Shown here in pieces: positions 10,063 to 10,222 of a stretch of 36,598 bases of DNA (positions are counted from its first letter, which is position 1; each line of letters opens with the position of its first letter). Under the pieces are notes generated by a model that saw only the letters and a program-made list of their open reading frames with translations, was not told the origin of the DNA and ran no database searches. The position numbers were made by a program, and so were the translations under genes. Source of the stretch: Teseptimavirus T7; the sequence record PP384396.1, one strand, 5' to 3'.

Positions 10063-10117
10063 CAGGATTCTTGATGACTTTCCAGACGACTACGAGAAGT
10101 TAATGCAAAGCTATTAG
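9785..10117 (+). CDS. 4.2: gp4.2, small ORF overlapping the 3' end of gene 4 in another frame
   Basis: ORF track 9785..10117 (110 aa); start maps to the recalled canonical 4.2 start; its last codons run into the 4.3-4.7 deletion junction. Confidence 0.45.
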
Positions 10118-10222
10118 CGCGCAATCGTTGCCGATAAGACCAACATGATTCACACAGGTTTCTTGACAGTTGTTTCATATGAAGAGATTGTTAAGTCACG
10201 ATAATCAATAGGAGAAATCAAT

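Follow-up and report, generated by a model that had tools for sequence, protein, structure and literature searches.

The shortened gene 4–gene 5 interval of Teseptimavirus T7 record PP384396.1 is almost certainly the scar of a designed deletion

The closest described counterpart of the locus considered here comes from the PHEIGES study of Levrier et al. (Nat Commun 2024; PMC10933291), in which three viable deletions, bridged by 20-bp orthogonal overhangs, were combined in a 35.8-kb phage named "T7-mini". The published purpose of the deletion at the present locus is to free capsid space in a reduced T7 chassis, and T7-mini, which was selected on E. coli B, is viable on that host and forms clear plaques (PMC10933291). 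A second construct of the same work, the "T7-compilation" phage (T7-compile), is T7-mini that additionally carries mCherry after gene 10 and a tail-fibre mutation for the infection of ReLPS hosts; it lyses its host more slowly than the corresponding ReLPS-infecting phage, and it also carries the larger 1.1-1.8 deletion, the mCherry load and tail mutations, to any of which the delay may be due (PMC10933291). Nanopore or Illumina reads served to assemble the genomes, and the variant table of the study records the deletion of 13305-14251, labelled "del3", for T7-mini and for three T7-compile clones (PMC10933291).

Other T7 phages resemble the locus in part. In MZ375256 (T7_120S), OL964741 (T7_5t3) and PV223880 (T7-B), which are viable, the same non-essential block has been removed and the ribosome-binding site of gene 5 kept. 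Their 1019-bp deletion falls exactly at an imperfect 13-bp repeat, ACAGG[A/T]TTCTTGA, which in T7 occurs directly after gene 4 and again near the end of gene 4.7, and a gap of 68 bp is left. Sberro et al. 2013 (Mol Cell 50:136) uncovered abortive infection by the sanaTA system with the help of a T7 that lacked gene 4.5, as far as the accounts of that work in PMC8230891 and PMC3985639 go.

The replaced segment between genes 4 and 5

We analysed the whole 36,598-nucleotide stretch of record PP384396.1 (hereafter the window); alignments were run against T7 AY264774, and gene coordinates were taken from NC_001604. The sequence and its list of open reading frames (ORFs) place the TGA stop of gene 4A/4B at 10060-10062 and the ATG of gene 5 at 10223, with an interval of 160 bp between them. 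In NC_001604 the corresponding interval, from the gene 4 end at 13265 to the gene 5 start at 14353, measures 1087 bp, which is 927 bp more than in the window. It contains the last part of gene 4.2, the promoters phi4.3 and phi4.7, and genes 4.3, 4.5 and 4.7. The initial annotation of this DNA had delimited the same 160-bp gap, from a gene 4 end at 10062 to a gene 5 start at 10223, and had given about 1.09 kb for canonical T7. Both statements are borne out, the alignment showing that the block is indeed missing and the NC_001604 coordinates that the reference gap is 1087 bp and not 160. Its description of the gap as free of T7 promoters and of ORFs of 60 codons or more is likewise upheld by a scan with the 23-mer promoter consensus, which reaches at most 11-12/23 in the interval, and by the ORF list, which holds no ORF of at least 60 codons inside it. 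On the same scan, the promoters annotated in T7_mini and located in the window score 19-23/23. The only sizeable ORFs that enter the interval are a 59-aa ORF on the minus strand (9999-10178) and the tail of the gene 4.2 ORF. The features of the region, in window coordinates, are as follows.

8362..10062, plus strand: gene 4A primase/helicase (4B start at 8551), intact; same coordinates in T7_mini PP384394.1 and 100% identical to T7
9785..10117, plus strand: chimeric gene 4.2 ORF, 110 aa versus 112 aa in T7; from the ORF list, the T7 alignment and translation
10062..10074, plus strand: left copy of the repeat, ACAGGATTCTTGA; from sequence comparison
10063..10101, plus strand: left flank of the deletion, native T7 13266-13304; exactly identical to T7 and containing the annealing part of primer T7mini-C-23-as
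10102..10121, no strand assigned: synthetic 20-nt orthogonal assembly linker, AATGCAAAGCTATTAGCGCG; matches the primer overhangs and has no T7 counterpart
10121..10204, plus strand: remnant of gene 4.7, codons 109-135 and TAA stop (10202-10204); tblastn identity of 100% over 10121-10201
10154..10166, plus strand: right copy of the repeat, ACAGGTTTCTTGA, 12/13 identical to the left copy and 92 bp downstream of it; from sequence comparison
10205..10222, plus strand: native spacer between genes 4.7 and 5, with the gene 5 Shine-Dalgarno sequence AGGAG (10210-10214); equals T7 14335-14352
10223..12337, plus strand: gene 5 DNA polymerase, intact; from the ORF list and the PP384394.1 annotation

In the alignment the window is identical to T7 up to position 10101 (T7 13304) and again from position 10121 (T7 14251), and between the two blocks lie 19-20 nt, AATGCAAAGCTATTAGCGC(G), that have no T7 counterpart. 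Because of these junction bases the event is a replacement, in which the 20-nt sequence AATGCAAAGCTATTAGCGCG has taken the place of 947 bp of T7 (13305-14251); the final G of this sequence coincides by chance with T7 base 14251. The earlier description of a 927-bp deletion consequently stands for the net loss and needs correction as to the nature of the event, which is not the plain loss of a segment. The DNA removed comprises the last 22 nt of gene 4.2, phi4.3, phi4.7, genes 4.3 and 4.5, and codons 1-108 of the 135 of gene 4.7. Of the 4.3-4.7 block that had been called lost, genes 4.3 and 4.5 and both promoters are gone, while the last 27 codons of gene 4.7 and its stop remain.

The genes cut at the two edges end differently. 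Gene 4.2 had been thought to run into the junction with possibly non-native last codons, and it does so: its last five codons (LMQSY) and its TAG stop (10115-10117) are encoded by the linker and replace the native FRWRVPF, and the Pfam domain DUF5480 of gp4.2 (residues 22-92) is unaffected. The remnant of gene 4.7 lies in the frame of gene 4.2, separated from it by the linker TAG, and has no start codon, promoter or ribosome-binding site of its own. As read from the sequence, its expression appears unlikely, since its only internal ATG (at about 10146) is not preceded by a Shine-Dalgarno sequence and would give a peptide of 19 aa. In Pfam, gp4.7 has no match.

Two further possibilities for the interval were considered and rejected. 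That the linker might have created a new promoter or terminator finds no support, since neither a T7 promoter nor any sigma-70-like or terminator-like site occurs in 10063-10222. A transfer of the deleted genes to another part of the genome is contradicted by searches of the window: blastn with the deleted DNA returned nothing beyond matches in or close to T7 promoter sites and scattered short ones (E about 1 or more), and tblastn with the proteins of the deleted genes returned only residues 109-135 of gp4.7.

Origin of the junction

We consider it almost certain that the 160-bp interval was left by a deletion designed into a T7 built in the laboratory. Supplementary Data 6 of the PHEIGES study equates T7_compile with PP384396, and its Supplementary Data 2 gives the primers T7mini-C-23-as, CGCGCTAATAGCTTTGCATTaacttctcgtagtcgtctgg, and T7mini-D-23-s, AATGCAAAGCTATTAGCGCGcaatcgttgccgataagacc (PMC10933291). 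Both match the window exactly, at 10082-10121 on the minus strand and at 10102-10141 on the plus strand respectively, and the linker constitutes the 5' overhangs of both; exact matches in the window exist as well for the published primers of the two remaining junctions and of the mCherry cassette. In a search of a phage collection, one record proved to have this junction at exactly the same coordinates, namely PP384394.1 ("Mutant Teseptimavirus T7 clone recombinant T7_mini"). At this locus the window shares its breakpoints and its 20-nt linker with the PHEIGES T7-mini/T7-compile deletion and does not differ from it. Genome-wide, the window equals T7_mini plus a 791-bp mCherry insert (19992-20782) and five point changes, as expected of a T7-compile clone, and one such clone in the published variant table carries, like the window, gp12 G780R, gp17 S541R and a neighbouring silent change (PMC10933291). 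From the T7_mini record and the supplementary tables we infer that the whole window represents the complete genome of the engineered phage T7-compile. The deletion, with its exact coordinates and its purpose, is already published and is already known; what its authors term "del3" presumably corresponds to del-4 of the six deletions attempted, counted in genome order.

The study and the primer matches show how the junction was made. Two T7 PCR fragments, one ending at 13304 and the other starting at 14252, were both tagged with the same 20-nt orthogonal overhang; following the PHEIGES procedure, exonuclease III treatment and annealing then joined the fragments, and the product was booted in a cell-free transcription-translation reaction.

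Deletions of this block can also arise without design, and a spontaneous loss during laboratory passage, mediated by short flanking repeats, has to be weighed against deliberate construction. The 13-bp repeat does flank the block, and it was used in MZ375256, PV223880 and OL964741. The junctions of these genomes lie in the microhomology, remove 1019 bp and contain no linker, whereas the window has lost 947 bp, carries a linker and has a 160-bp gap in place of their 68 bp. Its junction moreover lies elsewhere than in the repeat according to the alignment, and both copies of the repeat are retained. The 20 foreign nucleotides at the junction are the overhang of published primers, and linkers of the same design occur at the two other deletions in the same genome, all of which makes a spontaneous origin highly improbable. 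We attach just as little probability to an artefact of assembly or sequencing, in which a collapsed or mis-joined contig would simulate the loss: the same junction is present in the independently deposited PP384394.1, it conforms at every base to the design primers and to the variants that the authors tabulate for four sequenced phages, and the 160-bp terminal repeats of the window are intact and identical, as is proper to a complete T7 genome.

Natural T7-like phages vary in gene content in the 4.3-4.7 region, and a natural relative of T7 that never possessed these genes could in principle have a short interval at this place. The flanks of the present interval are nevertheless 100% identical to T7 as far as the breakpoints themselves, gene 4.7 is still represented by a truncated 3' piece, and the genome carries mCherry, so that we regard a natural origin as even less probable than a spontaneous deletion or an artefact. 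Deliberate construction, against which no observation speaks, is the interpretation retained in what follows.

The two copies of the repeat lie on either side of the linker, 92 bp apart. Since other reduced T7 genomes have deletions that end exactly in this repeat, the linker and the 4.7 remnant could be lost spontaneously on passage.

Gene 4.5, host defence and the expression of gene 5

T7 gp4.5 matches Pfam family PF17574, "Inhibitor of toxin/antitoxin system (Gp4.5)" (TA_inhibitor), with an E-value of 2e-62, and gp4.3 matches DUF5471. A PF17574/gp4.5-like ORF is absent from the window, where tblastn of gp4.5 gives chance matches only (E of at least 1.2). In the passages of PMC8230891 and PMC3985639 that report on Sberro et al. 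2013, gp4.5 is described as an interaction partner of Lon protease and possibly its inhibitor; in this way it stops the Lon-dependent degradation of the antitoxin, and the sanaTA system of Shewanella protects E. coli only against T7 without gene 4.5. Inhibition of Lon by gp4.5, which the initial annotation had mentioned as reported, is in keeping both with the PF17574 match and with these accounts. The 4.5-less T7 of that work, as they describe it, shares the loss of gp4.5 with the window and differs from it in construction and breakpoints; its phenotype was measured, whereas the window is known from its sequence.

With gp4.5, the phage has lost the Lon-binding inhibitor that blocks the Lon-dependent activation of the sanaTA defence. 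By analogy, a sensitivity of this phage to Lon-dependent toxin-antitoxin systems is plausible, and it has already been demonstrated for equivalent mutants lacking gene 4.5. Because the edit is engineered and published, and restriction of 4.5-less T7 by sanaTA has been reported, this consequence of the loss of gp4.5 is not a new hypothesis.

A preprint on genome-wide knockouts of T7 ranks genes 4.2, 4.3, 4.5 and 4.7 as low in essentiality, finds that gene 4.5 matters more in strains carrying CcdAB, and reports that deletion of 4.3 or 4.5 reduces plating on a RADAR system by about 70%, for which gp4.3 and gp4.5 are proposed as a weak counter (10.1101/2024.10.10.617714). E. coli B, the host on which the reduced phage was selected, is naturally Lon-deficient owing to an IS186 insertion in the lon promoter (PMC3446290). 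This deficiency probably helps explain why the loss of a Lon inhibitor has no obvious cost on E. coli B, a host on which the absence of both gp4.3 and gp4.5 would be expected to matter little. Plating would be expected to fall on Lon-proficient hosts with such defences, and T7-mini and T7-compile could be restricted there by sanaTA, possibly by CcdAB, or by RADAR.

The deletion may also bear on the supply of DNA polymerase. Both promoters removed, phi4.3 and phi4.7, are class II promoters. A stable hairpin (-24.4 kcal/mol, z = -3.1) is formed by an intergenic stretch of the deleted segment, T7 13854-13926, and probably represents the RNase III site R4.7 (after Dunn & Studier 1983). Since 102 native bases upstream of gene 5 are retained, including its ribosome-binding site, initiation of gene 5 translation should be unchanged. 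Its transcription would now depend solely on read-through from phi4c (at about 9451-9473), phi3.8, phi2.5 and phi1.1A, and the loss of phi4.3, phi4.7 and the R4.7 hairpin could lower or delay gene 5 mRNA and in this way add to the slow lysis of T7-compile. It is possible, if somewhat doubtful, that the deletion has measurable phenotypes beyond those scrutinised by its builders, namely this effect on gene 5 mRNA together with restriction on Lon-proficient hosts.

For the specialist there is little surprise in the locus: genes 4.2-4.7 are already documented as dispensable, and gp4.5 as acting against Lon. A caution nonetheless attaches to the use of a chassis that was selected on Lon-deficient E. 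coli B and lacks a counter-defence gene as well as two promoters upstream of the polymerase gene: because of these losses, it may underperform on Lon-proficient hosts that carry defence systems. Were restriction on such hosts to prove true, the chassis would be less suited to host-range or therapeutic engineering outside E. coli B.

Other engineered features of the genome

Three segments of wild-type T7 are deleted from the window, with about 20 foreign nucleotides at each junction. At the second junction (5891-5910), T7 5891-8846 in AY264774 numbering is replaced by the 20-nt linker AATGCGTCATTTTACACGGC, with the loss of genes 1.1-1.8, including the DNA ligase gene 1.3, of promoters phi1.1B, phi1.3, phi1.5 and phi1.6, and of terminator TE. 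At the third (8256-8275), about 280 bp of gene 3.8 (T7 ~11192-11479) are replaced by the linker AATATCACGCAAAAGCACCG; promoter phi3.8 (8228-8250) is retained, and the residue left upstream of gene 4A gives rise to a TTG-started ORF (8329-10062) that is longer than the annotated 4A (8362-10062).

The 791-bp insert is situated between gene 10 and the Tphi terminator and consists of a promoter, leader and ribosome-binding site followed by an ORF that encodes mCherry. The published mcherry-tt primers match both ends of the insert exactly. Its promoter is the exact T7 consensus and forms, with the phi10 leader and ribosome-binding site, a 78-bp duplicate of 18757-18834 with one mismatch; recombination at this duplication could eliminate gene 10 or the insert.

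The five point differences from T7_mini are found at window positions 32907, 32913, 23840, 34128 and 5971. The change at 32907 is gp17 S541R, the intended ReLPS host-range mutation, and is accompanied by an adjacent silent change in codon 543 (32913). The others are gp12 G780R, which the table of PMC10933291 lists among the tail mutations linked to ReLPS infection, L33P in gp19 (the large terminase), which was not found under that name in the authors' table, and, in gene 2, a synonymous substitution in codon 3. The terminal direct repeats of 160 bp (1-160 and 36439-36598) are identical, from which we conclude that the window is a complete linear genome of T7 type.
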